Below the pieces are notes generated by a model. It did no database searches. It was not told the DNA's origin and worked only from the letters and a program-made list of their open reading frames with translations. Below are positions 1-50,174 of a stretch of 64,000 nucleotides of DNA, one piece after another. The position numbers and the translations under genes are program-made. Positions within the stretch are counted from its first letter, which is position 1; each line of letters starts with the position of its first letter. Source of the stretch: an uncultured Chitinophagales bacterium (GTDB lineage: Bacteria > Bacteroidota > Bacteroidia > Chitinophagales > CAZNGA01); assembly GCA_964572485.1 (NCBI GenBank), contig CAZNGA010000003.1, positions 9,591 through 73,590 on the forward strand, in the 5' to 3' direction.

Positions 1-180
1 GGAACGGTGACCTCCGTATTGATCCCCTGGAATACCTGTGGCGCTACTCAATCAGCCGTTTTAGGAGTTGCTACTTTCACATACCTTCCCTATTGTTTTT
101 TTAATATTATCAGCCCATTTATGAGTATTTTCTTTGCTTACGCAGGGATAAAAATTGCAAAATATACTGGGAAGAAATGA
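1..180 (+). CDS. C-terminal fragment of a polytopic membrane transporter (NhaC-type antiporter-like); 5' end outside window
   Basis: Frame 1 is open from base 1 to TGA at 178-180. Translation GTVTSVLIPWNTCGATQSAVLGVATFTYLPYCFFNIISPFMSIFFAYAGIKIAKYTGKK is hydrophobic. The IPWNTCG...LPY.FFN pattern recalls NhaC C-termini (from memory, not searched). Confidence 0.4.
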   Translation, partial: GTVTSVLIPWNTCGATQSAVLGVATFTYLPYCFFNIISPFMSIFFAYAGIKIAKYTGKK

Positions 181-20397: not shown

Positions 20398-20522
20398 GGA
20401 AAGGTTTTTATTTGAAGTTAACTTACTCAATGGACCCTACTAATTTATACATTATTCTCATACAATAGAAATCGAATTCGTATTTGGTGTACAGCAATTA
20501 GCAAACGGTACGTTACACATAG

Positions 20523-23047: not shown

Positions 23048-26000
23048 TTATTTTGAAGCAGCTGCCCCAGCGAAGGGTGAGTTGCTGATAATTATTTTCT
23101 TCTGGAAAAGGACTGATTCACCTGAAAGAACAACATAATACAATCCTGATGGCAAACTGTTGCCAATAATAATGTCTTCCATGAAATTTTCACTGGTTAT
23201 TTTTACATTTTTGCTATACACTTCACGTCCCAGGAAGTCCAATATCGAGATCTTCATTTTGTTATCTTGTTGGCCCCAAATACTCACAAAGAACCTCCCC
23301 TCCACTACAGGATTAGGATACACTTTTACTTTCGTATAAGCGATCTTCAAAAAGGTTACTGAAACTATGTCAGAATAACTTGATTGCCCATCAATATCCA
23401 CTTGTAACAAGCGATAATATGATACTCCTTCGTGAGGATGTTCATCAGTAATACCATAATTTTGATTCGTGTAACTGTTTCCATATCCCTTTACTATAGT
23501 CAATGGATAAAAGCTATAACCATCCACACTCCTTTCTACCACAAAATGATCGTTGTTGATCTCAAAAGCGGTTGCCCAGGTCACATCCACCATCTCACCA
23601 TTTATTTCAGCATCAAAGCTTATCAATTCAATTGGAAGAGGAATACCGGTGCCGCCTGTGAATGCCAACACACCAGGGAAAGGTTCAGATATCCCCACCG
23701 CTGTATAGAATATATTTGCTGCATCATCTACTGCTTCATGGCTAGCCCATGTACTTCCATCCCAGATCTGTGAAGTCATTCCTGTCTCTGAACCAACTAT
23801 ATCAGCTGACACATAAGTATAGTTCACATTAAAGTTCATAGATAACAGGCCACTCCAGGTCATTGTCCAATACCTGGTAATATAATCAGCAGTACTCATA
23901 TTGGGATGCTTCCCATCCGTGATATTCACTGCAACACCATCACCGCCAAAGAAAGTTGCGGAATTCAGTTCAAAGGTAAATGGGGAGTAATTGGTTCCAT
24001 CTCCTACAGGAAATGTAAATGAACCTGTATCACTAAACTCTTTCACCATTGCTCCGCTGCCATCTGCCTGTACATAGCTGGATGAACTACCTCCTGTGGT
24101 CAGGCCATTATCCTTCATAGTAAGATTGTAATTTCCTAATACAATATCTCTTTCAATTAAAGTTAATTCAGTTGCTGATACATTGGAAGCTAATGGAAGA
24201 TCAGAACCTTGTTTATCCACCGTTATGTTATAATAAGTACCATCGTTTGGACCTTTTATTGCCTGTGAGTTATTACCATTATATTCAACGATATTTCCGG
24301 TAGCAGAAGCTACCAATTTTCCTGTGTTTAGCAGGTCTCTTTCAACGATCAATGAAGAGTTCACCTCATTGATCCAGAATGCATTCGCATCTTCTCCAAT
24401 AATATGCTCTTCAAAAACAATGTTTCCAAAATTTGTAATTGTGAAAGCACCCTTAAAAGTAAGGTCACTTTTTTTAATGATAAGGTATGCACCTGATGGT
24501 ATCGTCTTATTGCCATTAGTGATCCAAACACCATTATCATTCTGTATCCGTCCTATTCCATCTAATATTGAGCCTGACCCACTAAGAGTAAGCACATTAT
24601 CCCCTTTGATCTTTCCATCCACAATCAGGTCTCCCTGCACATCCATGGTCTTACTTTTTATATCAAGCTCTCCACCTGACATTATGATCAGGTTTAAGAT
24701 AGTAGTATTTGATTCCAGTTCTATATCATGATTAGCGCTGATCTTTACACTATTACCAGCCAAAGGGACACAATCGCAGTTCCATGTTTCGGGATCATCC
24801 CATTTACCTGATTTTATGCTTAAGATCGGAACATATATATTGATGCTTTGGTCAACACTTGCGGCTGCGCCACAACCATTGGAGCCGATCACACTCACTT
24901 CTCCAATTCCCGCTGATCCCCAATCTACTGTTATCTCATAGGTCCCTTGTCCGGCAGATATTGTCCCACCAGTAACTGTCCAGGTATAAGTATTCCCGGA
25001 GATATCTATAACATTATATATATCTCCTATAGAGTTTTCCGGTACATTGAAAGAGCCATAAATTATTGATGTTGCAATTGGATGAATACCCACAGCGAAA
25101 TCCACAGGAGTGGCACTCATACAGCTATTACTTTCTACTAAACGGACATTCCCTTCCATCCCTACAGCCCCCCAATCAATGGTTATACTATTTGTTCCCT
25201 GCCCGGAAATTATACTCCCTCCGGTGGCTGTCCATACATAACTATTACCGGGGGTATTTGTTACAGAATATATGCTTCCGCTAGTGTTCTTACATAAGCT
25301 ATCTGTTCCTGAAATAGTTGAAGTCGCTGGCCCGGAACAATTTGTAGTATCCCCTAAAGCAAATTGCCCTAAAATACTCATGCTTGTTCGGTAAGCAATA
25401 GGTGAAATAGCGATGCCATGATTACCGTTGGCTATCCATGGATCAGCGATCAATCCTCTGTAAAGAATTCTGGTTGAACCATCCATGGTAAATGAACTTA
25501 ATCCGGTGCTTGTGATTGCCATATCATATGTGGTACCTGCGAAAGAGTTGGCTTCGGTAAACTCCCAAAAACCTTCAGTAAATGTATTGTGTACTGTTTC
25601 GGCTCCATCAACAAGTGGGAATCCGTTAGTACCCGGATCGAATTCAATGAACTCTGCGATTATAGAACCTCCTGTCAATGCGCTGAAATTAAGTTTCACA
25701 TTTAATGCATAGTCATCGGTACCTACCGGGAATTCATAGGAAGAACCAGTTGTGTTTACCCATCTTTCAAATTGGCCTATAATTGTTCCGGCAGTGTGTA
25801 CCAAGCTCCCTTCATCTAGCAGACTTTCTCCTAATATCAATTTATTGGAGCCTGGATCTATATTACCCCTGATCATGGTAAGCGTATTTTCTACCGTATC
25901 AGATTGATTTAGTATTAACTTTCCTCCTGATTTATCAACAGTAAGATTATAAAAGCATTCTCCTGATATAGTCTCAAGGTTCTGATCTGTCGATCCGTTG

Positions 26001-26833
26001 AAAATAACGGTCCCTGTAGTTTCATTATTATAGGCCCTATTGATCCAATCCCCTGACAGCGAAAAAGTAAAAGTACCTAGATCGAAAATCCCACCATTTA
26101 TTGTAAAGTCACCGCTCACACTTAAATTAGCAAGAACAGTTTTAGTGCCGCTTGCTTCTACAATCAAGTGATAATAATTTCCAAGGGGGGTTTTAATATT
26201 TTGAGCAAGACTGCCATTGTATTTTACAGTATTGCCTGATGCGGAAGCATCAAGAATTCCTAACGGTAATAACGCACTGGCAACTGTTAATGAGCTATTG
26301 ACTTCATTTACCCACTTTGAAGTTCCATCTTCACCATGCAATGTATCACCAAGTGATACGATTCCATAATTATGAACAGTGATCCCACTTTTTATGGTTA
26401 TTGTTCCAAATGCTTTAGTGAGGTTCGCTGTGGATAGGATCGTTTTATCTCCTCCCTGAAACCATAGATCAGCTTCGTGAATAGTGCCATTACCATCAAT
26501 TGTGGTGTTGCTTCCATTCAATATGGTTGCCACACTTTTAAAACTCACGTGGTCACCATTAACCACATAGTTGCCATTGATTGTTAGCAATACTTTTCTA
26601 CTGAAAAGAATACCACCTGCATTAATTGTTAGATCATTAACAACAGTTGTATTTTGCATTCTCACCTGATGGCCTGCACCAATGATAATATCGTCCGTGG
26701 ACGTTGGGATACAACCACAATCCCAGGTATTTTTATTGTCCCAATTGCCACTGGTTATTGAAGTTATCGTAGCTGATTCAGCGACGAAGATCTGCAAAAA
26801 TAGAAATGCAGTAAGTAAATATACTTTCCTCAT
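23048..26833 (-). CDS. T9SS type-A CTD protein, tandem paralog A1 (two beta-helix-like modules + two Ig-like domains)
   Basis: 1261 aa with signal peptide MRKVYLLTAFLFLQIFVAESA.
- Module openers: SGNWDNKNTWDCGCIP (aa 28-43) and SGKWDDPETWNCDCVP (aa 675-690).
- Two Cys-bounded about 85-aa domains (aa about 499-668).
- Core: SYVQADGSG..FPVGD..YSPF..KHPN..ITRYW..DIVGSE..WDGSTW.
- LPIELISF...EINNDHFVVERS.DG...YYRL.QVD.DG.
- CTD: KVYPNPV...GLYYVVL...KKIIIS plus an 11-aa tail. Confidence 0.9.
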   Translation of the reverse strand: MRKVYLLTAFLFLQIFVAESATITSITSGNWDNKNTWDCGCIPTSTDDIIIGAGHQVRMQNTTVVNDLTINAGGILFSRKVLLTINGNYVVNGDHVSFKSVATILNGSNTTIDGNGTIHEADLWFQGGDKTILSTANLTKAFGTITIKSGITVHNYGIVSLGDTLHGEDGTSKWVNEVNSSLTVASALLPLGILDASASGNTVKYNGSLAQNIKTPLGNYYHLIVEASGTKTVLANLSVSGDFTINGGIFDLGTFTFSLSGDWINRAYNNETTGTVIFNGSTDQNLETISGECFYNLTVDKSGGKLILNQSDTVENTLTMIRGNIDPGSNKLILGESLLDEGSLVHTAGTIIGQFERWVNTTGSSYEFPVGTDDYALNVKLNFSALTGGSIIAEFIEFDPGTNGFPLVDGAETVHNTFTEGFWEFTEANSFAGTTYDMAITSTGLSSFTMDGSTRILYRGLIADPWIANGNHGIAISPIAYRTSMSILGQFALGDTTNCSGPATSTISGTDSLCKNTSGSIYSVTNTPGNSYVWTATGGSIISGQGTNSITIDWGAVGMEGNVRLVESNSCMSATPVDFAVGIHPIATSIIYGSFNVPENSIGDIYNVIDISGNTYTWTVTGGTISAGQGTYEITVDWGSAGIGEVSVIGSNGCGAAASVDQSINIYVPILSIKSGKWDDPETWNCDCVPLAGNSVKISANHDIELESNTTILNLIIMSGGELDIKSKTMDVQGDLIVDGKIKGDNVLTLSGSGSILDGIGRIQNDNGVWITNGNKTIPSGAYLIIKKSDLTFKGAFTITNFGNIVFEEHIIGEDANAFWINEVNSSLIVERDLLNTGKLVASATGNIVEYNGNNSQAIKGPNDGTYYNITVDKQGSDLPLASNVSATELTLIERDIVLGNYNLTMKDNGLTTGGSSSSYVQADGSGAMVKEFSDTGSFTFPVGDGTNYSPFTFELNSATFFGGDGVAVNITDGKHPNMSTADYITRYWTMTWSGLLSMNFNVNYTYVSADIVGSETGMTSQIWDGSTWASHEAVDDAANIFYTAVGISEPFPGVLAFTGGTGIPLPIELISFDAEINGEMVDVTWATAFEINNDHFVVERSVDGYSFYPLTIVKGYGNSYTNQNYGITDEHPHEGVSYYRLLQVDIDGQSSYSDIVSVTFLKIAYTKVKVYPNPVVEGRFFVSIWGQQDNKMKISILDFLGREVYSKNVKITSENFMEDIIIGNSLPSGLYYVVLSGESVLFQKKIIISNSPFAGAAASK

Positions 26834-26872
26834 AAAATAGTAATTTTATTAAGCACATAGTTTTATCTATAT

Positions 26873-26965
26873 AGTAATTACGTATGATTACCCTTAAAAG
26901 ACATATTTATTTGATAGAGATGGCTTATTAGCGGATAAGTGATCTAAAAATGGTGTTGAATGGGC
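26873..26965. promoter_or_regulatory. three-box upstream module of A1 (degenerate box1, 21/39 spacing)
   Basis: TTACGTATG core ending at 26886, a 21-nt gap, TATTTGAT (26908-26915), a 39-nt gap, then GTTGAATGGGC (26955-26965). Confidence 0.45.
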
Positions 26966-27171
26966 TATTTTAACCGATTAATGAGGTAAAATCGGTGATT
27001 CACAGCTATATAGGTTTTCTGCTCAATTTCGCAGGGTAAGATCAGTGTCTTTTAACCTTAAGCTTAAAGAAGTCGCAAAGTTCATTGGTTTAATCAATAG
27101 GGGTCTATAATGAATCATATCTGGATGCTAAGGTACTTAATCGACTGTGGCAATTACATCAGTTATAAAAA

Positions 27172-27257: not shown

Positions 27258-30200
27258 TTATTTATTCCCAACAAAGATATCCTCGCTATACGAATTCGTT
27301 AAGATGACCTTTTGTTTGAAGATATAATTATCACTGCTTGAAATGACGAAGTAAACTCCTGAAGGTAATTTACTTCCTACATCAATACCAGTCAATATAT
27401 TATCACTTTCCACCAACATCATTCTAGTAAACACTTCTCTACCTAAATGGTCAAGCAGTATGACTAACATCTCTTTATTTTGAAATCCCAAGATACCGAG
27501 ATTAAGTTTACCATCTACAACAGGATTAGGATACACTTTAACCATAGGTACAGGGATATCTGATAAAGTAACAGCAACAACATCTGAATAGCTTGCCCTT
27601 CCATCTTTATCAACCTGCATCAATCGATAATAAGAGGTGCCTTGAAGCGGATGGTTATCTGTCAAAGCATAATTGCTAGGCACATAACTATTACCAACTC
27701 CAAAAACCATACCTATACCGTAAAAATCCATACCATCTTGACTTCGTTCTACAATAAAATAGTCATTATTGATCTCAGTAGCCGTAGTCCAGGCAACATC
27801 CACAGCTTGTTCATTTACTTCTGCGTCAAAAGTTAAGAGTTCAATGGGAAGAGGGCTGCCACTTCCTCCAGTAAATTGCAATATACCTGGGAATGGAGCT
27901 GAGATACCACCGGAAGTTTGAAAAGTATTCGTCACTTCATCCACTACATCGTGAATTGTCCATGAACTTCCATCCCAGACATATGTGATCATCCCTATTT
28001 CAGTGCCAACAATATCTCCTGACACATACGTATAACTTACATCAAAATTCATAGATAATAAGCCACTCCAGGTCATCGTCCAATACCGCGAAATATAGTC
28101 AGCGGAAGTTATGGTAGGGTGTTTTGCATCAATTACCTTTATAGCTACCCCATCGCCACCAAAGAAAGTGGCTGAGTTTAAGTCAAAGGTAAATGGAGAA
28201 TAATTAGTTATATCTCCAATGGGGAAGGTAAATACTCCAGTATCGCTAAATTCTTTTATTACATAACCACTGCCATCAGCTTCAATATAAGATAAAGAGC
28301 TGCCTCCGGTTATATTCCCCTGATCCTTTATAGTAAGGTTGTTATTATCAAGAACCAAATTCCCACTTGAGAGATTCAATTCTGTTGTATTGATATCAGA
28401 GGTTAAAGTAAGATCATTGCCGGGTTTATCTACACTCAACCTATAATAAGTGTTCGCATTGGGTTGTTTAACACTTTGAGTTCCGCTACCTGAATAATTG
28501 ACCAAATTTCCTGAAGCTGAAGCGATTAGTTTTCCAGTAAGTAGAAATGCTCCTTTGATGTTTACAGAACTATTGACCTCATTGATCCATATTGAGTTCA
28601 CATTGGTACCTATAATATCTCCATATAGAAGGATGTTACCATAATTGGTAATCGTATATGCATCTTTAATAATGATCATTTTCCTTGTCTTTGTCAGATA
28701 AGCAGATGATAGGATCGTTTTATCGCCATCGGTAATTTCCAAATTACCTTTATTGGTTATTTTTCCAATACCATCAATTATTGTACCTGAACCGCTTAAT
28801 GTAAGGGTTGCTGAGCCTGAATATTCCCCATCAACTGTAAGATCCCCTTTCACATCCATGGTTTTACCTTCATCATCGATCTCTCCTCCGGCAACAATTT
28901 CCAGATGATTAACAACTGTTGCTGCTTTCAATTTAATTTTATGCTTTTTCATTACACGTACATTGCTACTTGCCGATGGCACACACTTGCAATTCCAAGT
29001 GGATACATCATTCCATTCTCCCGATTTGACGCTATTTATCGGTACATAAATATTGACATTTAAGCTTATTGTATCGGCCGTTCCGCAACCATTTGAGCCA
29101 TCAACTATTACCTTACCGGTTCCTGCTGCACCCCAGTCAACTGTAATACTATTGCTACCTTGCCCAGATACAATTGTGCCTAGCATCACGGTCCAATCAT
29201 ATGTGTAACCTGTAATTCCAGAGATACTGTAAACTTCTCCAGTCGTATTCTCTGTTACATTTTCTTTCCCTGTTATGGAAGATGTGGTAAATGGATGAAT
29301 ACTTACGGGCAAATTGACGGGTGAGCCATTTGTACAATTATTTGATTCTACCACCTCCACTTCGCCTATCATACCAATACCACCCCAGTCCACGGTAATG
29401 TTGTTGGTACCCTGGCCTGAAACAATTGTTCCGCCGGATACTGTCCATGCATAAGTAGACCCTAATGTATTGGTAACAGAGTAAGGTATACCCAGGGAAT
29501 TCTTACAAGTACTATCGATACCTGTAATCATTGAAGTTGACGGGCCTGCACAATTTGAAGTGTCCCCAAATGTCAGCTGCCCAATAGTTGTTAAACCGAT
29601 TCGAGATACAAATGGTGCGAGTACTGTCCCATGGGACCCATTAGCACTCCAAGGATCACTAGAAGAAGGCCTGAACAAGACCTTGGTAGACGAGTCAATT
29701 GGGAAACTGGAAAATCCAAAGCCACCCAAAGCCACATTATAATTATTACCTACAAAAGAATTCATTGGAGTCACTTCCCAATATCCTTCACTAAAAGTAT
29801 TGTTGAGCGTATCTGTTCCATCTACAACAGGTAGCCCATTATTGCCGGGAGCAAATTCGATGAATTCTACAATTATTGATCCGGATGACATTGAAGAAAA
29901 TCCTATTGACGTTTCTCTGGAATCGGTAGAGGTACCAATTGGGAATTGATAGGTAACCAAAGGACTTTTAATCCATCTCTCAAATTTCCCAATAATATTT
30001 CCTGATATATGAATCAAAGTTCCATCATTAATTGTATCTGTCCCAAGGACCAATTTCCCTGATCCCACATCGATATCACCACTATTCATAGTTAATAAAT
30101 TCTTAACCGTATCAGTGCAGCCCAGGGAGACTTTACCACTCAATTTCTCTACTCTTAGGTTATAATAGCTTTGTCCAAATAAGCATTTGACCACCTGATC

Positions 30201-31181
30201 TGAATTACCATCAAATACTACGGTACCTGATGCCTCATTAAATGAACCGGTATTGACCCAATTGCCTCGAAGGTATATGGTATTACTATTTGAATAAAAT
30301 GGCCCACTATTTAGGATCAGGTCGCCATTTATAAAAATATTTGCCATAAGATTTTTGATCCCACTACTTTCCAGGATAAGGTTATAGTAATTATTGCCTA
30401 ACGCTGTCTTAATATTCTGCGATACAGCACCATAATATCTGATATTATTGCCAGTGGCACTTGCATTCAACTTTCCGGTGGCAAGCAAAATGCCACGTAT
30501 ATTCAAAGTACTATTACTAGCATTGATCCAAATTGCAGAAGCACTTTGCCCAATGATATCACCTCCAACAGTGATTATTCCTTTATTAGTAACGGTTACA
30601 CCAGGATAAATAGTTATAGTACCAAATGCTTTAGTTAGATTTGAAGAAGCAACGATGGTCTTATTTCCATTCATTATTGCAAGGTCAGCTTCATGAATAG
30701 TGCCAATGCCTCCAATACTAGTGTTGATCCCTGTTAAAGCAGTAACGATACCTCCCATGCTTACATGATCGCCATCAACTATATAGTCGCCTGTAATGGT
30801 GATCTGACGTTTATTATTATATAACAGTGATCCGGATTTTATGAGAAGATCATTGACAACGGTGTTGGTTCCCAATGATACTTTATGGCCGCTCGAGATC
30901 ACCACATTGTCTGAAGAAGTAGGGATGCAACCACAATCCCAGGTTGTTTTAGCTGTCCACAATCCACCTTGCACTGAAACGATAGTGGCCTGCCCGTAAG
31001 AAAATAAGGTGAGGAGGGAAAAAAACCCCGTTAGAAAATAGACCTTGCTATTACGAATAATCGGTAACCCTGCTTTTTTTAATTGGTCATTAGTCATATT
31101 CCAAGCATTGCCACTCTCTAACGGGGAAACAACGGGCATAAAAAAAATTGCTCTTTTAATGAGGTAAAGTATTTCTTTCAT
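27258..31181 (-). CDS. T9SS type-A CTD protein, tandem paralog A2
   Basis: 1307-aa ORF with the same architecture as A1 (WTAKTTWDCGCIP and SGEWNDVSTWNCKCVP openers, two Ig-like domains, core module, LPIELLTF domain, CTD). The hydrophobic signal segment VYFLTGFFSLLTLFSYGQA starts about 45 aa into the ORF, so the true start may be the ATG at 31097. Confidence 0.85.
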   Translation of the reverse strand: MKEILYLIKRAIFFMPVVSPLESGNAWNMTNDQLKKAGLPIIRNSKVYFLTGFFSLLTLFSYGQATIVSVQGGLWTAKTTWDCGCIPTSSDNVVISSGHKVSLGTNTVVNDLLIKSGSLLYNNKRQITITGDYIVDGDHVSMGGIVTALTGINTSIGGIGTIHEADLAIMNGNKTIVASSNLTKAFGTITIYPGVTVTNKGIITVGGDIIGQSASAIWINASNSTLNIRGILLATGKLNASATGNNIRYYGAVSQNIKTALGNNYYNLILESSGIKNLMANIFINGDLILNSGPFYSNSNTIYLRGNWVNTGSFNEASGTVVFDGNSDQVVKCLFGQSYYNLRVEKLSGKVSLGCTDTVKNLLTMNSGDIDVGSGKLVLGTDTINDGTLIHISGNIIGKFERWIKSPLVTYQFPIGTSTDSRETSIGFSSMSSGSIIVEFIEFAPGNNGLPVVDGTDTLNNTFSEGYWEVTPMNSFVGNNYNVALGGFGFSSFPIDSSTKVLFRPSSSDPWSANGSHGTVLAPFVSRIGLTTIGQLTFGDTSNCAGPSTSMITGIDSTCKNSLGIPYSVTNTLGSTYAWTVSGGTIVSGQGTNNITVDWGGIGMIGEVEVVESNNCTNGSPVNLPVSIHPFTTSSITGKENVTENTTGEVYSISGITGYTYDWTVMLGTIVSGQGSNSITVDWGAAGTGKVIVDGSNGCGTADTISLNVNIYVPINSVKSGEWNDVSTWNCKCVPSASSNVRVMKKHKIKLKAATVVNHLEIVAGGEIDDEGKTMDVKGDLTVDGEYSGSATLTLSGSGTIIDGIGKITNKGNLEITDGDKTILSSAYLTKTRKMIIIKDAYTITNYGNILLYGDIIGTNVNSIWINEVNSSVNIKGAFLLTGKLIASASGNLVNYSGSGTQSVKQPNANTYYRLSVDKPGNDLTLTSDINTTELNLSSGNLVLDNNNLTIKDQGNITGGSSLSYIEADGSGYVIKEFSDTGVFTFPIGDITNYSPFTFDLNSATFFGGDGVAIKVIDAKHPTITSADYISRYWTMTWSGLLSMNFDVSYTYVSGDIVGTEIGMITYVWDGSSWTIHDVVDEVTNTFQTSGGISAPFPGILQFTGGSGSPLPIELLTFDAEVNEQAVDVAWTTATEINNDYFIVERSQDGMDFYGIGMVFGVGNSYVPSNYALTDNHPLQGTSYYRLMQVDKDGRASYSDVVAVTLSDIPVPMVKVYPNPVVDGKLNLGILGFQNKEMLVILLDHLGREVFTRMMLVESDNILTGIDVGSKLPSGVYFVISSSDNYIFKQKVILTNSYSEDIFVGNK

Positions 31182-31225
31182 AAATATATTTTTAAGTAGA
31201 TTCAGTTTTCCAATTTGTTCTATTT

Positions 31226-31318
31226 CTTACATACGTAAGGGACCAGTAACAATTCGATTTAATTTGACCAAACCTATGTACATCAAGTTAAGTGAACTTT
31301 ATTTAGGGATGAATGGAC
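31226..31318. promoter_or_regulatory. three-box upstream module of A2 (21/39 spacing)
   Basis: CTTACATACGTAAG (31226-31239), a 21-nt gap, AATTTGAC (31261-31268), a 39-nt gap, then GATGAATGGAC (31308-31318). Confidence 0.55.
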
Positions 31319-31564
31319 AAAAAAGTAAGATTAAACGGCCGAAACCTATACGATTGGCTATACCAAGACTTTACAATCCAACCTGGATATTCTGCTATAT
31401 CTATTAAGTCGATTCAAAGGGCTTAGATCAGCCACAATAAGTACCATTTACATAGGTAAGGATGATCTAGTTTTCCAATGATCTATCGATGCATGGATAC
31501 AATATAAGATCAGGTGTGACTTGGGAAATAAGTTGTGTTAGAGGGTAGTCATTGAAAGGAACAT

Positions 31565-34500
31565 TTATTTTGTAGAACCTTCTTCGCTTGTTGAGACAAC
31601 CAATTTTTGCTTGTACACAAAATTGTTACATTTTGCAACAACACAATATATGCCTGCGGTGAGCTGGCGAGCCATATCCATACATTTTATAAAGCCATCA
31701 TTTTCAGGCTTTTTCGTTATTGAATATACCTCCCTGCCTAAATGATCAAGTAATGTGATCGCCACTTCAACATCTTTGGCAAGGTTTTCAATTTCAATTC
31801 TCAAACTGACATTCTTATTGATCGGGTTTGGATAAACTCTTATCGAGGTTTGAGAAGACCTTGTAAAAATAACACTTACAATTTCAGAATATTCATAGCT
31901 ACCATTCTTGTCCACTTGTTTCAAACGATAATATGAGAGTCCGATGTAAGGATCACCATCCAGACTATAATATTTTGTTAATGTGTAACTATTTCCTACC
32001 CCACTGACTTTAATAATATCTTCAAAATCTGTTCCATTATAGCTTCTTTGTACCATGTAATAGTCATTATCAATTTCTATAGACGTAGACCATTCCAGAG
32101 CTACTTCATCAATTAATCCTTTAGCAGTAAAGCTAATAAGCTCAATGGGCAATAATGCACCGCCACCACCGGTAAAGTCTTCCTCATCCGGCTCAGTGGT
32201 TATGCCTGCAGAGGTAAACAATGTATTGCTTGGAGCGATCACAGGTTCGTAAGAGGTCCAACCCCCATCCCATCTCTGAGAGAGGAAGGTATTCTCTGAG
32301 CCAACAATATCAGCATCTACATATTGATAGGTGGCATCATAGTTTATGGCATTAACATCATGAATTTTAACTGTCCAATATCTTGTAATATACCCTGTTG
32401 ATGCCATATTAGGATGTTTAGCATCTGTCACATTCACATGCATTCCGGCAGGTTTTGAGCCTCTAAAAACTGTACCGGGATTCAAAGTGTACCAGAATGG
32501 GGAAAAATCATCTACATCCCCAACAGGGAAAAAGTAGGTCCCCAAGTTGTAGGTTCTTCTCTTAAAATCACCACCGCTATCTGCCTGCACATAACTATTT
32601 ACGTCACCACCTATTACATCCCCTCCTGCCATGATCCTGAAGTTATTGGATCCTAAAATAAGTTTACCACTGGTTAATGTCAAATTCATCGCATTCATAC
32701 CTTTTGTTATTCTAGCATTTCCAGCCAACTTGTTAATGATCACATTATAGTAATCTTTTGAATTTGGCCTTTTGACGATCTGGTTGGTAGCACCTGAATA
32801 TTCAACAGTATTATTGTAGCTATTTGCCTTAAGATCTCCGAGATAGCGGAGCAATTGGCCTTTGCAATTCAGGTAACTGCCTGCTGCATTGTCCCAAGTT
32901 GCATTTTGATTATTTGTAGTAAGGTCGCCTTCCAAAGTAATAGTACCCAAATTTGTAATTGTAATGTTACCATCCATATAAAGCGTATTTGAGGATTTGG
33001 TTAAAAACGCTGATGATAGAATTGTTTTATCGCCTCCTGTTATTCTTAACAATCCGGAATTCGCAATTTGACCGGTACCATCAATATTGGCACCAGCTCC
33101 ACTTAACAACAGTTCTCCAACACCGAGGAAAAATCCATCTATAGTTAGGTCACCTGTTACTTCCAGGTCAACGGCATTTAAACTCAGTACCCCTCCGGCT
33201 TGAATTTCAAAATGATTTACAGTTGTATTTTGAAATACATCCACTACATGAGTATTCATTATTTTTACATTGCTGCTTACTAAGGGGACACAACTACAAT
33301 TCCAGGTATTGAAATCACTCCACGCCCCTGTTTGCACGCTGATAATTGGCACATAAATATTGATCTCCATACACATAGTATCTGCAAGTCCACAGCCATT
33401 TGAGCCGATAACACATACAGCGCCAATCGCTGCAGCCCCCCAATCAATAATTGCAGTACCTGTTCCTTGCCCCGCAACTACTGCCCCTCCTACAACACTC
33501 CATGTATAATTATACCCCGGAGCTCCAACGATATTATAAGGTTCACCCAAAGTAAACTCCGAAACATTTTCTTTTCCAGTTATGTCCGTAGTACTAAAGG
33601 GATGAATATTCACCGGATAGGCAACTGAAGCACCCCTGGTACAAGAATTAGTTTCATATACTGTAACTCCCCCAACCATACCCGTATTTCCCCAGTCAAC
33701 CATGACAGCATTAGTGCCCTGACCAAATGTCACGAGGCCACCAGTAGCCATCCATGTATATGTTGACAAAGGAGTGTTAACTACAGAATATGGAATTCCA
33801 AAAGCGTTTAGACAAACGCTGTCCGCCCCTGCAATTGGAGATGTAACCGGACCTGTGCAATTGGCAGAGTCACTAAAAGCAAATTGTGCAGGAAGCATAT
33901 TAACTCCATCTCGTTTTGTTGTTTGTCCAACAGCAGATGAGTGGATGCCATTTGCAGTCCATGCGCTAGCATCATTCAATCTGGTAAGTACTCTGGTCAT
34001 TGGGATAATAGGGAAACTTGTATACCCATTTCCTGAAAACTCTACATTATAATCAAAACTTAACAATCCATTTGATGCTGAGAGGTCCCAATAACCCTCT
34101 ACAAATGTATTATTTAATGTAACTGTATTATCAAGCAAAGGTAAGCCATTTATTCCCGGTGGAGTTTCGTTATATTCAACGGTAAGTAAGCCACCTGTTA
34201 TCGCATTGAATGTTACCATAGCCGGGTAATAACTTGTTGCAATACCGATGGGAAACAAATATCCTGAGCTAAGTGTATTTACCCAACGGGCCAATCTTCC
34301 GATGATCACTCCCGAAAAGTAGGTTAGGTTTCCTTCATTGGCAATGGAAGTACCTAGGATCAGCTTCGTGGTGTCAGTGTTGATATTTCCTACCATCATT
34401 TCAAGATGGTTAATTACGGTCACTTGATTTTGCAAGATCAAATCACCCATCGGCTTTTCCACCCTTAGATGATAAAATACTTCGCCTTGATTATTAGTAA

Positions 34501-35374
34501 TTGTTTGGTCAGATAATCCATTCATGATCACTGATCCATTTGAATTGACAAAAACGCCCGTATTGAGCCAATCGCCTTTTAAATACATTGTAAACCCACC
34601 CAGGTCAAAAGTCGAACTGTAGATAACAAAATCACCGTTGATTGTGACATCAGAACCTAGGGTCTTAACCCCTGAGGCCTCCAAAAACAAGTTATAATAG
34701 GTACTTCCAATTGTATTATTGATCTGTTGACTGTCTACTCCATAATATCTTACGGTATTGCCCGGGGATGTGGCATCAAAGACACCATTTGTTTCAAATA
34801 CTGCACCCCCAATATTTAATGTTGCATTAACCCCGTTGACCCATTGTGAAGTTGGATCAACACCTGTAAGGACACTACCGATGGTTATTGTGCCTAGATT
34901 ATTAACAATTACACCTGATTTAACAGATACGATTCCAAATGCTTTTGTAAGTCTCGCTGTTGCGAGAATTGTTTTATTGCCACCGCTTAATCTTAGTTCG
35001 GCAGAATGTATGGTCCCGATTCCACCAATATTGGTTCCAATTCCTGTTAATTCAGTCCTGTCGTTTCCAACATGGTCTCCGTTTATGATATAATCGCCTG
35101 CCACTGTTAATACATATGAATTATTATTGAGGAGGCCGCCGGCATTTATGGTTACACTATTTATCATTACCGAATCAGCAAGTCTTACTTCGTGACCATT
35201 ACCAATGATCACATCATCTGTAGGTGCGGGTACACAATTACAATCCCAGGTGGTCGTATTGATCCAACTCCCACTCTGAATTGAATTTGCCACAATAGCA
35301 TGTGCGTTGATCGCAAAAAGCATTATCGCTAATAAGGATATTACCCTTTTTAGTGATTGATAAAAAGTGCTCAT
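31565..35374 (-). CDS. T9SS type-A CTD protein, tandem paralog A3
   Basis: 1269 aa with signal peptide LLAIMLFAINAHA. Openers SGSWINTTTWDCNCVP and TGAWSDFNTWNCSCVP. Two Ig-like domains, core module (YVQADSGG..FPVGD..FSPF..KHPN..ITRYW), LPIELISF domain, and CTD RVYPNPI...GIYCVV. Confidence 0.9.
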   Translation of the reverse strand: MSTFYQSLKRVISLLAIMLFAINAHAIVANSIQSGSWINTTTWDCNCVPAPTDDVIIGNGHEVRLADSVMINSVTINAGGLLNNNSYVLTVAGDYIINGDHVGNDRTELTGIGTNIGGIGTIHSAELRLSGGNKTILATARLTKAFGIVSVKSGVIVNNLGTITIGSVLTGVDPTSQWVNGVNATLNIGGAVFETNGVFDATSPGNTVRYYGVDSQQINNTIGSTYYNLFLEASGVKTLGSDVTINGDFVIYSSTFDLGGFTMYLKGDWLNTGVFVNSNGSVIMNGLSDQTITNNQGEVFYHLRVEKPMGDLILQNQVTVINHLEMMVGNINTDTTKLILGTSIANEGNLTYFSGVIIGRLARWVNTLSSGYLFPIGIATSYYPAMVTFNAITGGLLTVEYNETPPGINGLPLLDNTVTLNNTFVEGYWDLSASNGLLSFDYNVEFSGNGYTSFPIIPMTRVLTRLNDASAWTANGIHSSAVGQTTKRDGVNMLPAQFAFSDSANCTGPVTSPIAGADSVCLNAFGIPYSVVNTPLSTYTWMATGGLVTFGQGTNAVMVDWGNTGMVGGVTVYETNSCTRGASVAYPVNIHPFSTTDITGKENVSEFTLGEPYNIVGAPGYNYTWSVVGGAVVAGQGTGTAIIDWGAAAIGAVCVIGSNGCGLADTMCMEINIYVPIISVQTGAWSDFNTWNCSCVPLVSSNVKIMNTHVVDVFQNTTVNHFEIQAGGVLSLNAVDLEVTGDLTIDGFFLGVGELLLSGAGANIDGTGQIANSGLLRITGGDKTILSSAFLTKSSNTLYMDGNITITNLGTITLEGDLTTNNQNATWDNAAGSYLNCKGQLLRYLGDLKANSYNNTVEYSGATNQIVKRPNSKDYYNVIINKLAGNARITKGMNAMNLTLTSGKLILGSNNFRIMAGGDVIGGDVNSYVQADSGGDFKRRTYNLGTYFFPVGDVDDFSPFWYTLNPGTVFRGSKPAGMHVNVTDAKHPNMASTGYITRYWTVKIHDVNAINYDATYQYVDADIVGSENTFLSQRWDGGWTSYEPVIAPSNTLFTSAGITTEPDEEDFTGGGGALLPIELISFTAKGLIDEVALEWSTSIEIDNDYYMVQRSYNGTDFEDIIKVSGVGNSYTLTKYYSLDGDPYIGLSYYRLKQVDKNGSYEYSEIVSVIFTRSSQTSIRVYPNPINKNVSLRIEIENLAKDVEVAITLLDHLGREVYSITKKPENDGFIKCMDMARQLTAGIYCVVAKCNNFVYKQKLVVSTSEEGSTK

Positions 35375-35397
35375 AGTTTTCCCATTTAATACTATTT

Positions 35398-35469
35398 CTT
35401 ACATACGCGAACATTCCGGATAAATCCGAGTAAATTTGACGGAAGTGGTGGTAATTTCGATGAATGGAC
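35398..35469. promoter_or_regulatory. three-box upstream module of A3 (21/18 spacing)
   Basis: CTTACATACGCGAA (35398-35411, right half degenerate), a 21-nt gap, AATTTGAC (35433-35440), an 18-nt gap, then GATGAATGGAC (35459-35469). TAAATTTG at 35431-35438 matches TAnnTTTG on the plus strand. Confidence 0.55.
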
Positions 35470-35767
35470 CTATTCCTATGGTTAATAGCCTATAAGGTTG
35501 GATAAGGCACTTAAGCTCAATGACTGCAAGGTATTAAGGCAGTACATCATCACTTCAATACTCTTATACATAATAGGTAAGCACAGGGGAAGGGCCTACT
35601 AATGATCACTTCGGATCTGATACACAAGATAAATATCGCGGACTAAATTAGAAGTAGGTGTATTTGTAATATTTGAAACTTAGGGTAAGTACAATACAAA
35701 AAAATGCCCACATCGATTCACCTTCAGGTAGGATGCAGACATTTAAAGTTTTAATATGCTTTGTAGG

Positions 35768-38296
35768 TTATTGCTTGGCAATTGAAGAAGAGGAATTGCC
35801 TGAAACGACGATTTTTTGATAATAATAATTATTGTTATTGCTTCCATAGACAAAATATACGCCAGGTTTTAATTTGCTATTAATTACAAGCGTTTGAAAC
35901 ACCTTTTTATCAGTTGGCATCATAACTTTAGTATAGATATGTTTTCCTGATTGATCAATCAAATTTACAAGGACCTCTTTTTGAGAATCAAAACCATCAA
36001 ATTCAATATTAAAAGGTTGACCTGCAATAACAGGGTTTGGATAAATCTTTATGCCCGGCAGATCAATATGGTTCATATTGACAGATACCGGTGAAAAGTA
36101 TTTGTAATATCCATCAAAATCGGTTTGCTTCAATCGATAATAACTAATGCCGTAATAAGGAGTTTGATCGGTAAAAGTATAATTAGTTGAAATATATGAA
36201 GTTCCTTGTCCATAAACTTGTCCGATCTCTTCATAAACAACACCATCATCCGAATGCTCAAGTGTAAAGTAATCATTATTGATCTCAACTGCTGTCGACC
36301 AGGTCAGTGATACTTTATGGCCTACTATTTCAGCATTAAATCCAAGCAGTTCTATTGGTAAAATCGATCCGGCACCTCCACCTGTAAATCCATCGTTGGC
36401 AGGGATCTCACTGATACCTGTAGTATTGGATAGTGTATTTGTTGGTAGAGTAGCAGAATTATATGATGCCCAGGCACTTCCATCCCATCTTATCCCTAAG
36501 AGGTTGCTCTCGGATCCTACAATATCTGCATTTACATACACCGATTTATAGGTAAAGTTAATTGCCGAGAATCCACCACTATTTACATTCCATACTCTGG
36601 TGATATGAGCAGCGCCTGCATTTATATTAGGATGTTTTTCATCAGTGATATTTACGGACATGAAATCACCTCCGCCAAATGTGGTTCCTCCAATCAACTC
36701 TACCCAAAAAGGGGAATATTCATTATTATCCCCTACCGGATAATTGAATGGATTATTGAGTGCATCCATATTTTTGATCATTACACCTGCATTATCTGCT
36801 TGCACATAACTTGAAGCACTTTCATTGGACGATGTGGCATTGACGTCCATAGTCATATCATTTGACCCTAATACGATATCCCCAAGAGTAAGATCGAGGG
36901 TACGAGAAACTGTGATATCTGTATTCAATGATACATCACCACTTGAATTATTGATGGTCAGGTCATAATAGGTTTCACTAACACCATTGACAGTTTGGGC
37001 CGCTGCGCCATCGAATGTCATCATAGCACTTTGCTCATTGAAGGTACCATTGTCTGTCCAGTCACCTGCAAGAGTGATACTATAGTTGTTGGCAACATCT
37101 GCATCCAAAGTAGTGGAAGCTACTATCAACAGGTCGCCATCTACATTAATGTTTCCTACAAGTGTCTTTGTTGCTCCTCCTGAAAGTGTTATGTTGCCAT
37201 AGGGCTCACTATTTGATGGATTGGGAACACTTTGTGCACTAGTGGCAGCAAAATTCACTGTACTGTTAACATGGATATTATGATATGCAGTACTCGATGT
37301 TTGCAACATACCTCCTGTGGCATCTGTGGTTGTAGAATAATAAGTGGCGCCATCGGCAATTTCAAAAACCTTCCCATTCTTCAATTCAATACTGAATCCG
37401 CCGGAGTTCATTTGTCCGCTTTGGATTCGGATGCTGTCATCAACTCTATTCTTTACATCGGAGATACTAATATTTGCATCTAAAGTTACACCTGCCGCAT
37501 TATTAATTTCTATATCTCCATACAGCCACAAATTAGTGAATGAATTTCCATAATCGATCATGGATAGGGTTTGTGGTGATGTACCGTTGAAATTCACTAC
37601 TGTATTCACCTCACAATCCAGATCGCCATAGTTACCGGCTGCGCTTCGGTCAAAATTTCCTGCAATATTCAATATCCCAAAATCATTCATATTGATCTTT
37701 GAATTTCCCACTTGAGCTCCGGTATATATAATATCACCTCCAACTGTGCATATCGCATTTCCTTGAATTTTGAGTTCCGCTTTTTGATTACCATCTGTCC
37801 ACAGTAATACATCACCGACTACGGTCAATGTGCCATCTTCCTTCACATCAACTTTAGCATCATCCTGAGTATGATATGCTTTTAAAATCAAATCTCTTCC
37901 AATGGACACAGTTCCAGGGCTGGCAGTTTGCCCTAGTATCTCTATTAATGCCTTATGTTTGTAGTTGACCCCTCTTAATAGAACACCATTGGTTACAGTG
38001 AGGTCGCCATTATTATCTATAATTATCCTGGAATCCTTAGCGGAGCCACACATCACATGAATAGAATCGCAAGTTTCAGTTGAATTGACAGTAACAATAT
38101 ATCCCCCCTCAATTACAGCGATATCCCCACTCCCCGGGACAGATGCTCCTGAACCACCACCTGAAGTTGCTGACCAGGTGCCGGTACTGCTCCAATTACC
38201 GGTAGCCACTGAATAGCGTGTGGCTGCCTGGAGAAACATTGTGCAAAAGAAGATGATCAAGGTGATCAAAAAGAGAATAGTAGAGATCTTTTTCAT
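35768..38296 (-). CDS. T9SS type-A CTD protein, tandem paralog B1 (single module)
   Basis: The ORF extends to 38404. The ATG at 38296 gives signal peptide MKKISTILFLITLIIFFCTMFLQA. Opener TGNWSSTGTWSATSGGGSGASVPGSGD. Core YVQADNAG..YPVGD..YSPF..KHPN..ITRVW. LPIELLGF domain. CTD KIYPNPV...GVYFVY. Confidence 0.85.
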   Translation of the reverse strand: MKKISTILFLITLIIFFCTMFLQAATRYSVATGNWSSTGTWSATSGGGSGASVPGSGDIAVIEGGYIVTVNSTETCDSIHVMCGSAKDSRIIIDNNGDLTVTNGVLLRGVNYKHKALIEILGQTASPGTVSIGRDLILKAYHTQDDAKVDVKEDGTLTVVGDVLLWTDGNQKAELKIQGNAICTVGGDIIYTGAQVGNSKINMNDFGILNIAGNFDRSAAGNYGDLDCEVNTVVNFNGTSPQTLSMIDYGNSFTNLWLYGDIEINNAAGVTLDANISISDVKNRVDDSIRIQSGQMNSGGFSIELKNGKVFEIADGATYYSTTTDATGGMLQTSSTAYHNIHVNSTVNFAATSAQSVPNPSNSEPYGNITLSGGATKTLVGNINVDGDLLIVASTTLDADVANNYSITLAGDWTDNGTFNEQSAMMTFDGAAAQTVNGVSETYYDLTINNSSGDVSLNTDITVSRTLDLTLGDIVLGSNDMTMDVNATSSNESASSYVQADNAGVMIKNMDALNNPFNYPVGDNNEYSPFWVELIGGTTFGGGDFMSVNITDEKHPNINAGAAHITRVWNVNSGGFSAINFTYKSVYVNADIVGSESNLLGIRWDGSAWASYNSATLPTNTLSNTTGISEIPANDGFTGGGAGSILPIELLGFNAEIVGHKVSLTWSTAVEINNDYFTLEHSDDGVVYEEIGQVYGQGTSYISTNYTFTDQTPYYGISYYRLKQTDFDGYYKYFSPVSVNMNHIDLPGIKIYPNPVIAGQPFNIEFDGFDSQKEVLVNLIDQSGKHIYTKVMMPTDKKVFQTLVINSKLKPGVYFVYGSNNNNYYYQKIVVSGNSSSSIAKQ

Positions 38297-38447
38297 AATT
38301 GTTGCTTTGTTATTATAGTTTACGTTTTGACCAAATCCTTGTTTCGAATTGGCCTCCTGACTTATTAGTCGGTTTACTATCGCTGATAAATGGTCGTTAT
38401 TCATAAATAAATGGTTGGTATTATATAGTTACTATACTATCAACTCT

Positions 38448-38519
38448 CTTACTTACGTAAGTTTGTCTGCATAATCTGAGAAATTTTGACCGATGTAATG
38501 GAATATTCGACGAATGGAC
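38448..38519. promoter_or_regulatory. three-box upstream module of B1 (21/18 spacing)
   Basis: CTTACTTACGTAAG (38448-38461, containing the perfect 12-bp palindrome ACTTACGTAAGT), a 21-nt gap, ATTTTGAC (38483-38490), an 18-nt gap, then GACGAATGGAC (38509-38519). Confidence 0.6.
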
Positions 38520-38658
38520 CTATTATGGTGTTGAATAACTTTGTAGAATAGATAAGCTGCCTAATAGACAATAGAACTTTGAGTATGCAAATACATTTAT
38601 AGGGTCAGGAACCATTGGGGTATATTATCAAGGGGTAAAGTTACTGCCAACAATACAA

Positions 38659-44651: not shown

Positions 44652-44714
44652 CAAATATATATCTTGACATGAGGTGATACAAACCATGTTAAAATGGTTG
44701 CTTTCCCGTGTAAG
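44652..44714 (-). promoter_or_regulatory. candidate B2 promoter: box1 plus TAnnTTTG box
   Basis: Box1 CTTTC-CCGT-GTAAG (44701-44714). On the minus strand, TATATTTG (44659-44652) lies 41 nt below it and about 48 nt upstream of the ATG at 44604. A TTTG sits 20 nt upstream of the -7 box. Confidence 0.5.
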
Positions 44715-47469: not shown

Positions 47470-47532
47470 CAAAAATAAAACATTAGTCAAGTGAAAGCAA
47501 TCAGATTTGCACTACAATCTTTCGCATGTAAG
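47470..47532 (-). promoter_or_regulatory. candidate B3 promoter: box1 plus TAnnTTTG box
   Basis: Box1 CTTTC-GCAT-GTAAG (47519-47532). On the minus strand, TATTTTTG (47477-47470) lies 41 nt below it, the same spacing as at B2. A TTG sits 20 nt upstream of the -7 box. Confidence 0.5.
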
Positions 47533-47656: not shown

Positions 47657-48019
47657 TTACAATAAGTTAAGTCGTTGCATTAAGCTTTTCCTATAAGATT
47701 TGCTGATCGGAATGGGCTTTTTATCCAATATAAGGATCTTTCCCTGTATGGCAGCGATCTTATCAATACGGATGATGTATGATCTGTGTACCCTGATAAA
47801 ATCTTCAGCAGGGAGCTTACCTTCAATACCTTTCATGGTAGAATGAACGGTGTAATTTTCATGCTCAGTTTGAATGATCACATAATCACCATACGCTTTG
47901 ATCCACAGGATATCTTCAGGATAGATCTTTAAAAGGCGTGCAGCCGCTTTCAGAAATATGTGGTTGCTCTGAAAAGTGGTTTGTTTACTAGGCTGATTCA
48001 AGTTGTTGCTTTGGAACAT
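47657..48019 (-). CDS. stand-alone LytTR-domain DNA-binding protein (no receiver domain), copy 1
   Basis: 120 aa. DILWIKAYGDYVIIQTEHENYTVHSTMKGIEGKLPAEDFIRVHRSYIIRIDKI is a complete LytTR domain preceded by only about 30 aa. Confidence 0.85.
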   Translation of the reverse strand: MFQSNNLNQPSKQTTFQSNHIFLKAAARLLKIYPEDILWIKAYGDYVIIQTEHENYTVHSTMKGIEGKLPAEDFIRVHRSYIIRIDKIAAIQGKILILDKKPIPISKSYRKSLMQRLNLL

Positions 48020-48155: not shown

Positions 48156-48524
48156 CTAATCCATTCTTTTCATTAGTTCTTTCCTGAAGGAATCACTTAC
48201 CGGTATCAGCTTCTTTCCTACCTCCAGAGTCTTATTATTTATCGCATTTATTTTATCAATGGCCACAATATATGATCTGTGTACTCTTATAAATTTAGCC
48301 TCAGGAAGCATCTCTTCAATTTCCTTCATTGTTGCATGTACTGTATGTCTATCTTGAAAAGTTTTAATACTGACGTATGAGCCAAAGGCCTCCACACAAA
48401 GGATAGCATCAAGCAGTATCTTGAGGATGGGCGCCTTCTCTTTCACGAAAAGTGGTTTACTTGGTGGTACTCTCTTTCTCATATTGCTATCTTGGTTTTC
48501 AAAGCCGTCAATATTTCTGATCAT
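48156..48524 (-). CDS. stand-alone LytTR-domain DNA-binding protein, copy 2
   Basis: 122 aa. AILCVEAFGSYVSIKTFQDRHTVHATMKEIEEMLPEAKFIRVHRSYIVAIDKI. Confidence 0.85.
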   Translation of the reverse strand: MIRNIDGFENQDSNMRKRVPPSKPLFVKEKAPILKILLDAILCVEAFGSYVSIKTFQDRHTVHATMKEIEEMLPEAKFIRVHRSYIVAIDKINAINNKTLEVGKKLIPVSDSFRKELMKRMD

Positions 48525-48556
48525 GTCAATTAGTTTTAAATTGTTTGCCTATAGTA

Positions 48557-48628
48557 AAACTATACGTAAGGTTCCAGGTAAAAGGTGATTAATTTTGATG
48601 GATGCATTGATTAAAAGGACGAATGGGT
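48557..48628. promoter_or_regulatory. three-box module upstream of LytTR copy 2 (21/18 spacing, same as A3 and B1)
   Basis: ATACGTAAG ends at 48570 (the left half-site is degenerate), a 21-nt gap, ATTTTGAT (48592-48599), an 18-nt gap, then GACGAATGGGT (48618-48628). TAATTTTG at 48590-48597 matches TAnnTTTG on the plus strand. Confidence 0.55.
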
Positions 48629-48733
48629 CAATTATTCGGATTAACGAACCATTTAGGTGGTTGACTATCCATTAATTGTGTTGAATTGATGATTCAATGG
48701 ATACGAGTATAGGTACATTCCTTCTTTTTGAAT

Positions 48734-49212: not shown

Positions 49213-49557
49213 CTAAAGCAGATTTAAATTTTGCATCAAATTCTCCTTGTACGAATTACTAACAGGGATATATTTTGAGGCAACTTTTAGTGTTTTACCG
49301 TTTACAGAGTTGATCTTATCCAGGGCAACAATAAATGATCTATGTACGCGAATGAAAAATTCGGGGATCAGTTTCTTTTCAATGCCCTTCATTGTTGTGT
49401 GAACAGTATATTTTCTTTCAGGTGTATGGATGATAACATAGTTGCCTAGTGCTTCGATCCATAAAATATCTTCCACATTTATTCTATGAAAATGGGTACT
49501 TGTTTTCACAAAAAAGTTCGCATTTGGCTTCTGCGATATGGTCTGTTTGTTCTTCAT
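49213..49557 (-). CDS. stand-alone LytTR-domain DNA-binding protein, copy 3
   Basis: 114 aa. DILWIEALGNYVIIHTPERKYTVHTTMKGIEKKLIPEFFIRVHRSFIVALDKI. It starts 32 nt downstream of the 165-aa CTD protein gene on the same strand. Confidence 0.85.
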   Translation of the reverse strand: MKNKQTISQKPNANFFVKTSTHFHRINVEDILWIEALGNYVIIHTPERKYTVHTTMKGIEKKLIPEFFIRVHRSFIVALDKINSVNGKTLKVASKYIPVSNSYKENLMQNLNLL

Positions 49558-50087: not shown

Positions 50088-50160
50088 TCTATAAAGTTCT
50101 TTTAACTTATTGCAAATTACTTAATGCGAATTCCTTGGACAAACCATTACAAGGCATGCG

Positions 50161-50174
50161 GTTACACATGTAAG
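50161..50174. promoter_or_regulatory. box1 palindrome upstream of the 165-aa CTD gene / LytTR copy 3 pair
   Basis: GTTAC-ACAT-GTAAG followed by ATTTTGAGG, 73 nt upstream of the ATG at 50087. A near -7 box, GTAATTTG, lies on the minus strand at 50120-50113 (40-nt gap). Confidence 0.45.

Follow-up and report, generated by a model that had tools for sequence, protein, structure and literature searches.

Genomic setting of the locus

The window, that is, the whole stretch of 64 000 nucleotides analysed here, belongs to a Bacteroidota genome assembled in 167 contigs with a completeness of 92.7%, and is occupied by an array of minus-strand genes encoding T9SS C-terminal sorting domains, which comprises A1, A2, A3 and B1 as well as several others. 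Three stand-alone LytTR-domain genes (Pfam PF04397, E-values 1e-19 to 2e-23) and a response regulator are found in the same window, and their products are candidate binders of the repeats described below. The genes on which the analysis bears are the following:

23048-26833, minus strand: A1 gene, T9SS C-terminal sorting domain
27258-31181, minus strand: A2 gene, T9SS C-terminal sorting domain
31565-35374, minus strand: A3 gene, T9SS C-terminal sorting domain, start codon at 35374
35768-38404, minus strand: B1 gene, T9SS C-terminal sorting domain
47657-48019, minus strand: stand-alone LytTR-domain gene, candidate repeat binder
48156-48524, minus strand: stand-alone LytTR-domain gene (LytTR2), candidate repeat binder
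49213-49557, minus strand: stand-alone LytTR-domain gene, candidate repeat binder
19651-20430, minus strand: response regulator with receiver and LytTR domains (Pfam PF00072 and PF04397), fourth candidate repeat binder

The longest ORFs of A2 and B1 start 28 and 36 codons ahead of the signal peptides (31098-31181 and 38297-38404, respectively); the true starts are probably the downstream ATGs, and the leaders would then be about 140 and 160 nt long.

Architecture of the upstream module

The sequences upstream of A1, A2, A3, B1 and LytTR2 consist of a common module of 125 nt and align without a single gap. The comparison rests on 11 modules, seven copies in this genome and four in the related genome G012, nine of which align ungapped, while the C1 and C79 copies fit after a 1-nt shift; the E-values of the copies in nhmmer or cmsearch searches range from 1e-16 to 1e-25. 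An earlier note on this DNA had divided the stretch 35398-35469 into three boxes, of which box2, read on the plus strand, had been taken for a promoter element. The seven copies of this genome, with the strings at the box2 position where they are discussed below, are:

26866-26990, minus strand: A1 module copy, plus-strand box2 TTTATTTG at 26906, CGTA at 26879-26882
31219-31343, minus strand: A2 module copy, plus-strand box2 TTAATTTG at 31259, CGTA at 31232-31235
35391-35515, minus strand: A3 module copy (column 1 is 35515, column 125 is 35391), immediately upstream of the A3 start codon
38441-38565, minus strand: B1 module copy, plus-strand box2 AAATTTTG at 38481, CGTA at 38454-38457
48550-48674, minus strand: LytTR2 module copy, upstream of the LytTR gene 48156-48524, plus-strand box2 TAATTTTG at 48590-48597, CGTA at 48563-48566
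C1:121830-121940, same genome, outside the window: copy upstream of another A-type paralog, found by profile search
C79:6590-6705, same genome, outside the window: copy upstream of a gene for a 321-aa signal-peptide protein, found by profile search

On the gene strand, the module contains four 9-bp direct repeats with the consensus yCAtTCrTC, spaced by 12-bp gaps and repeated with a 21-bp period (columns 7-15, 28-36, 49-57 and 70-78), followed by an A/T tract, an invariant CGTA and 33-54 nt up to the first ATG of the ORF. CGTA is present in 11 of the 11 modules, 30 nt after the proximal repeat DR3 (29 nt in C1 and C79), and the DR3 pattern T...TC is equally invariant, the G012 and C1 copies of this repeat being TTATTCATC, GGTTCATC and CTTTTCATC. 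All 11 modules lie just upstream of the adjacent gene and are directed toward it, their targets being mostly T9SS-secreted paralogs, together with one stand-alone LytTR gene. The three boxes can be resolved into these elements: box3 is DR2, box2 is the end of DR3 with the A/T tract and box1 is the CGTA region. In the A3 copy, the elements are located as follows:

35501-35509, minus strand: DR0, 9-bp direct repeat TGCCTTATC, in 21-bp phase, with conserved columns T11, A13 and C15
35480-35488, minus strand: DR1, 9-bp direct repeat CTATTAACC, 12 bp after DR0, a peak of the LRS matrix (see below) on the gene strand only
35459-35467, minus strand: DR2, 9-bp direct repeat CCATTCATC (plus strand GATGAATGG), top mean LRS-matrix score, on the gene strand only; micro-ORFs start inside it
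35438-35446, minus strand: DR3, proximal repeat ACTTCCGTC, whose last base C is the plus-strand G at 35438 of TAAATTTG
35431-35438, plus strand: box2, TAAATTTG, which matches TAnnTTTG exactly; its gene-strand letters are the last C of DR3 and then the A/T tract AAATTTA
35404-35407, minus strand: CGTA, the invariant core of box1, with its TA at 35405-35404
35398-35411, no strand assigned: box1 dyad region, gene strand TTCGCGTATGTAAG, of which A3 has the right half GTAAG only

A fifth LytTR-like word, TCGGATTTA, TCAGATTAT or TCACCTTTT, is found at module columns 87-95 (minus strand, 35421-35429 in A3); it has a good LRS-matrix score, is out of phase with the four repeats and overlies the expected -33 position.

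Distribution of the module

The comparative sample is small and partly paralogous, with full modules in two genomes only. Among 150 sampled genomes of the order, no full module was detected beyond those of this genome and G012, with weak partial matches elsewhere, and no further full module was found in 80 metagenome and 80 genome loci encoding similar LytTR proteins when these were scanned with the module models. Three of the four G012 copies are on a contig that also bears two stand-alone LytTR genes, located between modules, and the fourth is on a second contig.

A comparison of LytTR2 with 5.8 billion proteins yielded one relative only, 56% identical. On its contig (ENA contig k141_103700, 1632 nt), this relative is situated between two T9SS-type genes, of which the downstream one is preceded by a terminator and lacks an upstream repeat module.

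In other genomes of the order, a 21-bp unit composed of TCATTTATC and 12 nt forms long tandem arrays that reach at least 14 copies, with a repeat word and a period that match the LytTR sites described here. These arrays, which may be LytTR landing pads or satellites, are:

G009:C1:3155931-3156216: 21-bp-unit array, locus L216
G009:C1:5064583-5064690: 21-bp-unit array, locus L220
G033:C65:26260-26405: 21-bp-unit array, locus L215

The plus-strand match to the sigma-A -7 box

The -7 box of Bacteroidota sigma-A promoters, TAnnTTTG, occupies positions -12 to -5 of the promoter (PMC9723704). Papers by Bayley in 2000 and Chen in 2007 reportedly deal with it as well. In this genome, the motif is used on the gene strand, where it is strongly enriched 20-60 nt before start codons, with a peak at -60 to -20, while the opposite strand remains at background; the genome-wide ratio of gene-strand to opposite-strand occurrences at -65 to -18 is 3.05 for TAnnTTTG and 2.1 for TAnnTTTA. 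The sequence features from which the earlier note had argued are all there: a motif scan recovered the exact plus-strand matches at 35431-35438 (A3) and 48590-48597 (LytTR2) as well as the one-off versions at A1, A2 and B1, no -33 TTG or TTTG is present upstream of 35431 at the distance of about 19-21 nt, and the A3 spacer (35375-35767) contains no TAnnTTTG on the gene strand.

How much such a match means depends on the letters around it. Each of the seven copies in this genome contains the gene-strand letters TC-AAA-WWWW and hence, on the plus strand, WWWWTTTG, so that four of the six consensus letters are guaranteed and an exact match has a probability of about 0.25; three exact matches were observed among the seven (A3, LytTR2 and C79) against 1.75 expected (binomial P(>=3) about 0.24). 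The consensus scores are 6, 6, 6, 5, 5, 5 and 5 of 6 in this genome and 3, 3, 3 and 4 of 6 in G012, where none of the four modules has an exact match. The critical letter, A at position 2, is found in four of the 11 modules (4/7 here, 0/4 in G012), and the TA as a whole is lacking from four of the seven own copies and from all four of G012. Upstream of genes in this genome, exact TAnnTTTG in antisense orientation occurs at about 0.0009 per nt, and about 14% of the genes have one inside the 150 nt upstream. Measured by the same strand ratio, TTnnTTTG (0.80), AAnnTTTG (0.96) and ATnnTTTG (0.79) show no enrichment, from which it follows that the one-off boxes, those of A1, A2, B1 and C1, are of classes without promoter use in this organism. 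An A/T-rich 3′ flank also accompanies other repeats, as at DR2 of A3, which yields TAATTTCG on the plus strand at 35452. Judged by these sequence counts, the box2 match does not exceed chance expectation when the local sequence constraint is taken into account, and the plus-strand 'promoter' is most likely a by-product of the A/T-rich tract beside a regulator-binding repeat and not a conserved function.

Additional exact TAnnTTTG strings are present within the modules, namely TAGGTTTG on the gene strand in DR3 of A2 (31276-31269) and, on the plus strand of the B1 module, TAAGTTTG in box1 (38458-38465) and TAACTTTG between DR0 and DR1 (38536-38543). They show the ease with which chance matches arise.

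What lies downstream of box2 on the plus strand was also considered, and neither a gene nor a conserved small ORF, a terminator or an RNA structure was found there. The micro-ORFs that had been proposed, MDLFLWLIAYKVG (35464), MDLLWC (38514) and a 37-aa ORF from 31313, do exist and, as had been said, are not conserved, since their peptides share nothing. The 'conserved ATG' of box3 from which they start is real as far as its letters go; it is merely supplied by GAATGG, the reverse complement of the repeat word CCATTC. An Rfam scan of 22000-54000 with E<=1 gave one sub-threshold chance match only, and RNAalifold on the nine-module alignment returned neither pairs nor a consensus structure. A 5′-UTR RNA element or an sRNA was rejected because of this lack of pairs and because the gap-free alignment has a 21-bp DNA period.

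A further reading of the same strings, conceivable if unlikely, is that the exact plus-strand boxes at A3, LytTR2 and C79 initiate some transcription which, directed away from the adjacent gene and belonging to a pervasive antisense background, is neither conserved nor the purpose of the module. The promoter information of this genome is almost entirely contained in the -7 box, the -33 element being very weak, and as the -7 box nearly alone carries this information, the exact boxes at 35431, at 48590 and in C79 could fire at some level. Such transcription would have a parallel in Flavobacterium psychrophilum, where antisense transcripts with non-canonical initiation overlap 12% of the CDSs (PMC9723704). 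The flanks of box2, however, have neither the T-rich stretch at -6 to -3 nor the C/T preferred after the G in the promoters of this genome, the TA is missing in the copies counted above, and such a transcript would run through the LytTR repeats, at about +5 to +70, and be blocked when these are occupied. Compared with a Bacteroidota sigma-A promoter, the plus-strand 8-mers at 35431 and 48590 thus have the exact core, but they are on the strand opposite the gene, are not conserved among the copies, have atypical flanks and have nothing downstream to express.

Orientation and spacing of the repeats

The orientation of the repeats can be assessed independently of this genome, using the LRS promoters of Streptococcus mutans and its relatives. 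A position matrix was derived from 40 LRS repeat words of experimentally studied and predicted promoters (PMC6193735) and applied to nine modules, each read in both directions. Its highest mean scores all fell on the gene strand, where columns 48, 6 and 27, which are the phased repeats in the LRS register, stood out together with an extra site at column 87, while no peak appeared on the plus strand of these nine modules. The orientation of the repeats is therefore the one known from promoters that direct transcription into the adjacent gene.

Their spacing was compared with that of LRS promoters. In the modal LRS layout, the repeat is followed by 10 bp, the -35 hexamer, 17 bp and the -10 element, which places the first -10 base 33 nt from the repeat, and in two Bacteroides LRS-like operons the distance is 11+4+19 = 34 nt ahead of a TATCTTTG -7 box (PMC6193735). 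The invariant TA of CGTA is found 33 nt after the proximal repeat in the LRS register, and this TA is not a consensus box. The start codon follows this TA after 31-47 nt in A1, A3 and LytTR2, and three G012 copies have 59-66 nt in between, distances that fall inside the range of the -7 boxes of the genome. A calibration of the spacing between direct repeats and -7 box found no other direct-repeat pair in this genome followed by a canonical box.

A putative LytTR-dependent promoter on the gene strand

Taken together, the phased LytTR-type repeats and the invariant CGTA, whose TA has the spacing of a LytTR -10 element, suggest that 35398-35469 is probably the promoter-proximal part of a LytTR-type control region, in which a LytTR-dependent, non-canonical promoter would drive the adjacent minus-strand gene. 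This was the alternative meaning that the earlier note had allowed for, a non-canonical promoter for the genes themselves, and it is the one favoured here. LytTR proteins encoded nearby are predicted to occupy the repeats along one face of the DNA and would bring RNA polymerase to a core promoter that is weak and non-canonical. The TA of CGTA (35405-35404 in A3) would form positions -12/-11 of this promoter, with predicted minus-strand start sites about 10-13 nt beyond this TA, near 35393 for A3, 48552 for LytTR2, 26868 for A1, 31221 for A2 and 38443 for B1. LytTR2 would activate itself via its own copy of the module.

The core element itself departs from the consensus. The gene-strand 8-mers that begin at the TA of CGTA agree with TAnnTTTG at two to four of its six positions, the class TAnnTAAG to which such 8-mers belong shows no promoter-like strand enrichment across the genome, and no -33 TTG is present on the gene strand at the usual spacing from CGTA. 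Given this poor fit and the missing -33 TTG, the gene-strand core promoter is postulated and not recognised. In A2, B1, C1 and C79, moreover, the likely start codon is 90-170 nt past CGTA (130-170 nt in C1 and C79), and C1 has a second promoter-like arrangement closer to the gene, so that in some copies the module may be an upstream site and not the core promoter; these four genes would have long leaders or additional promoters.

Other assignments of the core were tried and rejected. Columns 95-112, read as a sigma-54 promoter (-24 GG / -12 GC), do not fit; the gene-strand TCAAA, taken as a sigma-E-like -10, has no conserved -35; and box2, taken as a gene-strand -7 with DR2 as the proximal repeat, would have a spacing of 21 nt instead of 30-34 and contains no TTTG.

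The CGTA may also be read by a sigma factor other than sigma-A. In this improbable case, an ECF sigma factor would recognise the gene-strand promoter, with CGTA as its -10 (a CGT box) and the LytTR array as an upstream modulator. The invariance of CGTA in 11/11 modules is as well explained in this way, a CGT fitting the -10 of ECF sigma factors at least equally well, and in F. psychrophilum T9SS genes are driven by the motif SM6, which has a CGT box at -10 and has been attributed to ECF sigma factors (PMC9723704), so that the module resembles these promoters both in an invariant CGT(A) at the expected -10 and in its T9SS-related genes. At the -35 the likeness is confined to two copies, GAAC-N16-CGTA in C1 and AAC-N17-CGTA in G012 copy b, whereas the other nine modules have no conserved AAC-type element 16-17 nt upstream. 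No sigma or anti-sigma gene was found among the ORFs of the window scanned with Pfam, and ECF promoters rarely depend on an upstream activator array. In the module, a LytTR-type array is present upstream of CGTA.

The box1 dyad and a second promoter layout

The dyad CTTAC-N4-GTAAG that the earlier note had placed in box1 (35398-35411) has its centre about 26 nt upstream of the box2 TA, as described there. Its full form is present in A2 and B1 only, A3 and LytTR2 have half dyads, and the dyad is missing from this position in 7 of the 11 modules, namely A1, C1, C79 and all four of G012.

A related dyad belongs to a second promoter layout, which is common to B2, B3 and the 165-aa T9SS gene (minus strand, 44652-44714, 47470-47532 and 50113-50170). 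Here the gene strand carries a TATATTTG, TATTTTTG or TAATTTG box, and the first base of AAAtCTTACatg, a dyad of the form CTTAC-N4-GnAAG, precedes the TA of that box by exactly 55 nt. The gene at 39673 also has the motif, in this case 55 nt ahead of a TATATTG that overlaps the predicted TTG start. The LRS matrix gave no consistent pattern on the second layout of B2, B3 and the 165-aa gene.

Both arrangements occur in front of the A-type paralog of the same genome that lies outside the window (C1, gene 119587-121707, leader C1:121683-121947). Its leader has the four-repeat module with CGTA, then, about 30 nt after CGTA, a perfect CTTACTTATGTAAG dyad and, 54 nt later, a gene-strand TAAATTTA. The distance of some 30 nt between CGTA and the C1 dyad beyond it shows that the two elements can be separated, and since the leader carries the module as well as the dyad and its -7 box, the two layouts are stacked in one leader.

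The dyad had been given a role in the reading originally proposed for the locus, a functional divergent promoter: with a regulator on the box1 dyad at about -40, the position of a class II activator site, plus-strand box2 would be activated, the RNA interfering with the upstream paralog or encoding micro-peptides. As a conserved function, this reading finds no support and is very improbable. It could draw on the seven box2 copies of this genome, each scoring 5 or 6 of 6, and on the plus-strand box1 of A2 and A3 (ATTTCTTACATACG). The latter resembles the AAATCTTACATG motif, which in B2, B3 and the 165-aa gene precedes bona fide -7 boxes on the gene strand by 55 nt, and 55 - 33 = 22 nt corresponds to two helical turns. 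Against it, conservation does not extend to the TA, and this genome makes no promoter use of the variant classes; most modules have no dyad at this place, and that of C1 is displaced; the G012 modules retain the repeats and CGTA, with neither dyad nor plus-strand box; and downstream nothing is conserved, the micro-ORFs being made from the letters of the repeat itself and no plus-strand terminator or RNA structure being present. Just as improbable is a LytTR-gated two-way switch, in which the exact plus-strand boxes (A3, LytTR2 and C79) would, with the repeats empty, drive transcription across them and, in antisense direction, into the upstream paralog at its 3′ end, while a filled array would block that RNA and turn on the CGTA sense promoter; if true, neighbouring paralogs would be expressed mutually exclusively or in order.

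Comparison with known LytTR systems

The reading preferred here, a LytTR-dependent promoter on the gene strand, has its closest counterpart in the LRS promoters of S. mutans and relatives, which are regulated by HdrR and BrsR (Zou et al. 2018, PMC6193735). Both have 9-bp direct repeats with 12-bp gaps just upstream of the promoter (a putative one here), similar repeat letters (ACCATTCAA and ACCACTTAT in LRS, CCATTCAAC and TCACTTATC here) and the same orientation to the regulated gene. The 33 nt from the repeat to the first -10 base of LRS equal the distance here to the TA of the putative -10, and in both the regulators are small receiver-less LytTR proteins, one of which has a site upstream of its own gene. 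They differ in that four phased repeats are present here instead of two and that the targets here are T9SS-secreted paralogs. Unlike in LRS, no membrane-inhibitor gene accompanies the LytTR genes of the window: no ORF of at least 80 aa is found between or directly after them, and their neighbours are T9SS-tail proteins. The module also has no recognisable -35/-33 or canonical -10/-7, and its binding and activation by LytTR proteins are predicted.

Within the same phylum, the Bacteroides LRS-like operons (Btheta7330_RS19915/RS19920 and a B. ovatus pair; PMC6193735, Table 3) likewise have phased direct repeats, there about 34 nt upstream of a -7 box. Their repeats, however, are of 11 bp with an 11-bp gap, their -7 is a canonical TATCTTTG with TGTA at -33 and their regulators have transmembrane segments, whereas here 9-bp repeats with 12-bp gaps are combined with CGTA-TAWNWWWN at the putative -7 position.

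Implications

For AT-rich Bacteroidota, the locus is a caution that an exact TAnnTTTG on the wrong strand can be produced by the A/T letters flanking a regulator site and is not in itself the mark of a promoter. In an uncultured lineage of Bacteroidota, the module would place a regulon of T9SS-secreted surface proteins under LytTR control, and it would pair four phased sites with a core promoter outside the sigma-A consensus. If CGTA is the -10 element, it would show how LytTR activators work with the unusual Bacteroidota polymerase or with an ECF sigma factor.
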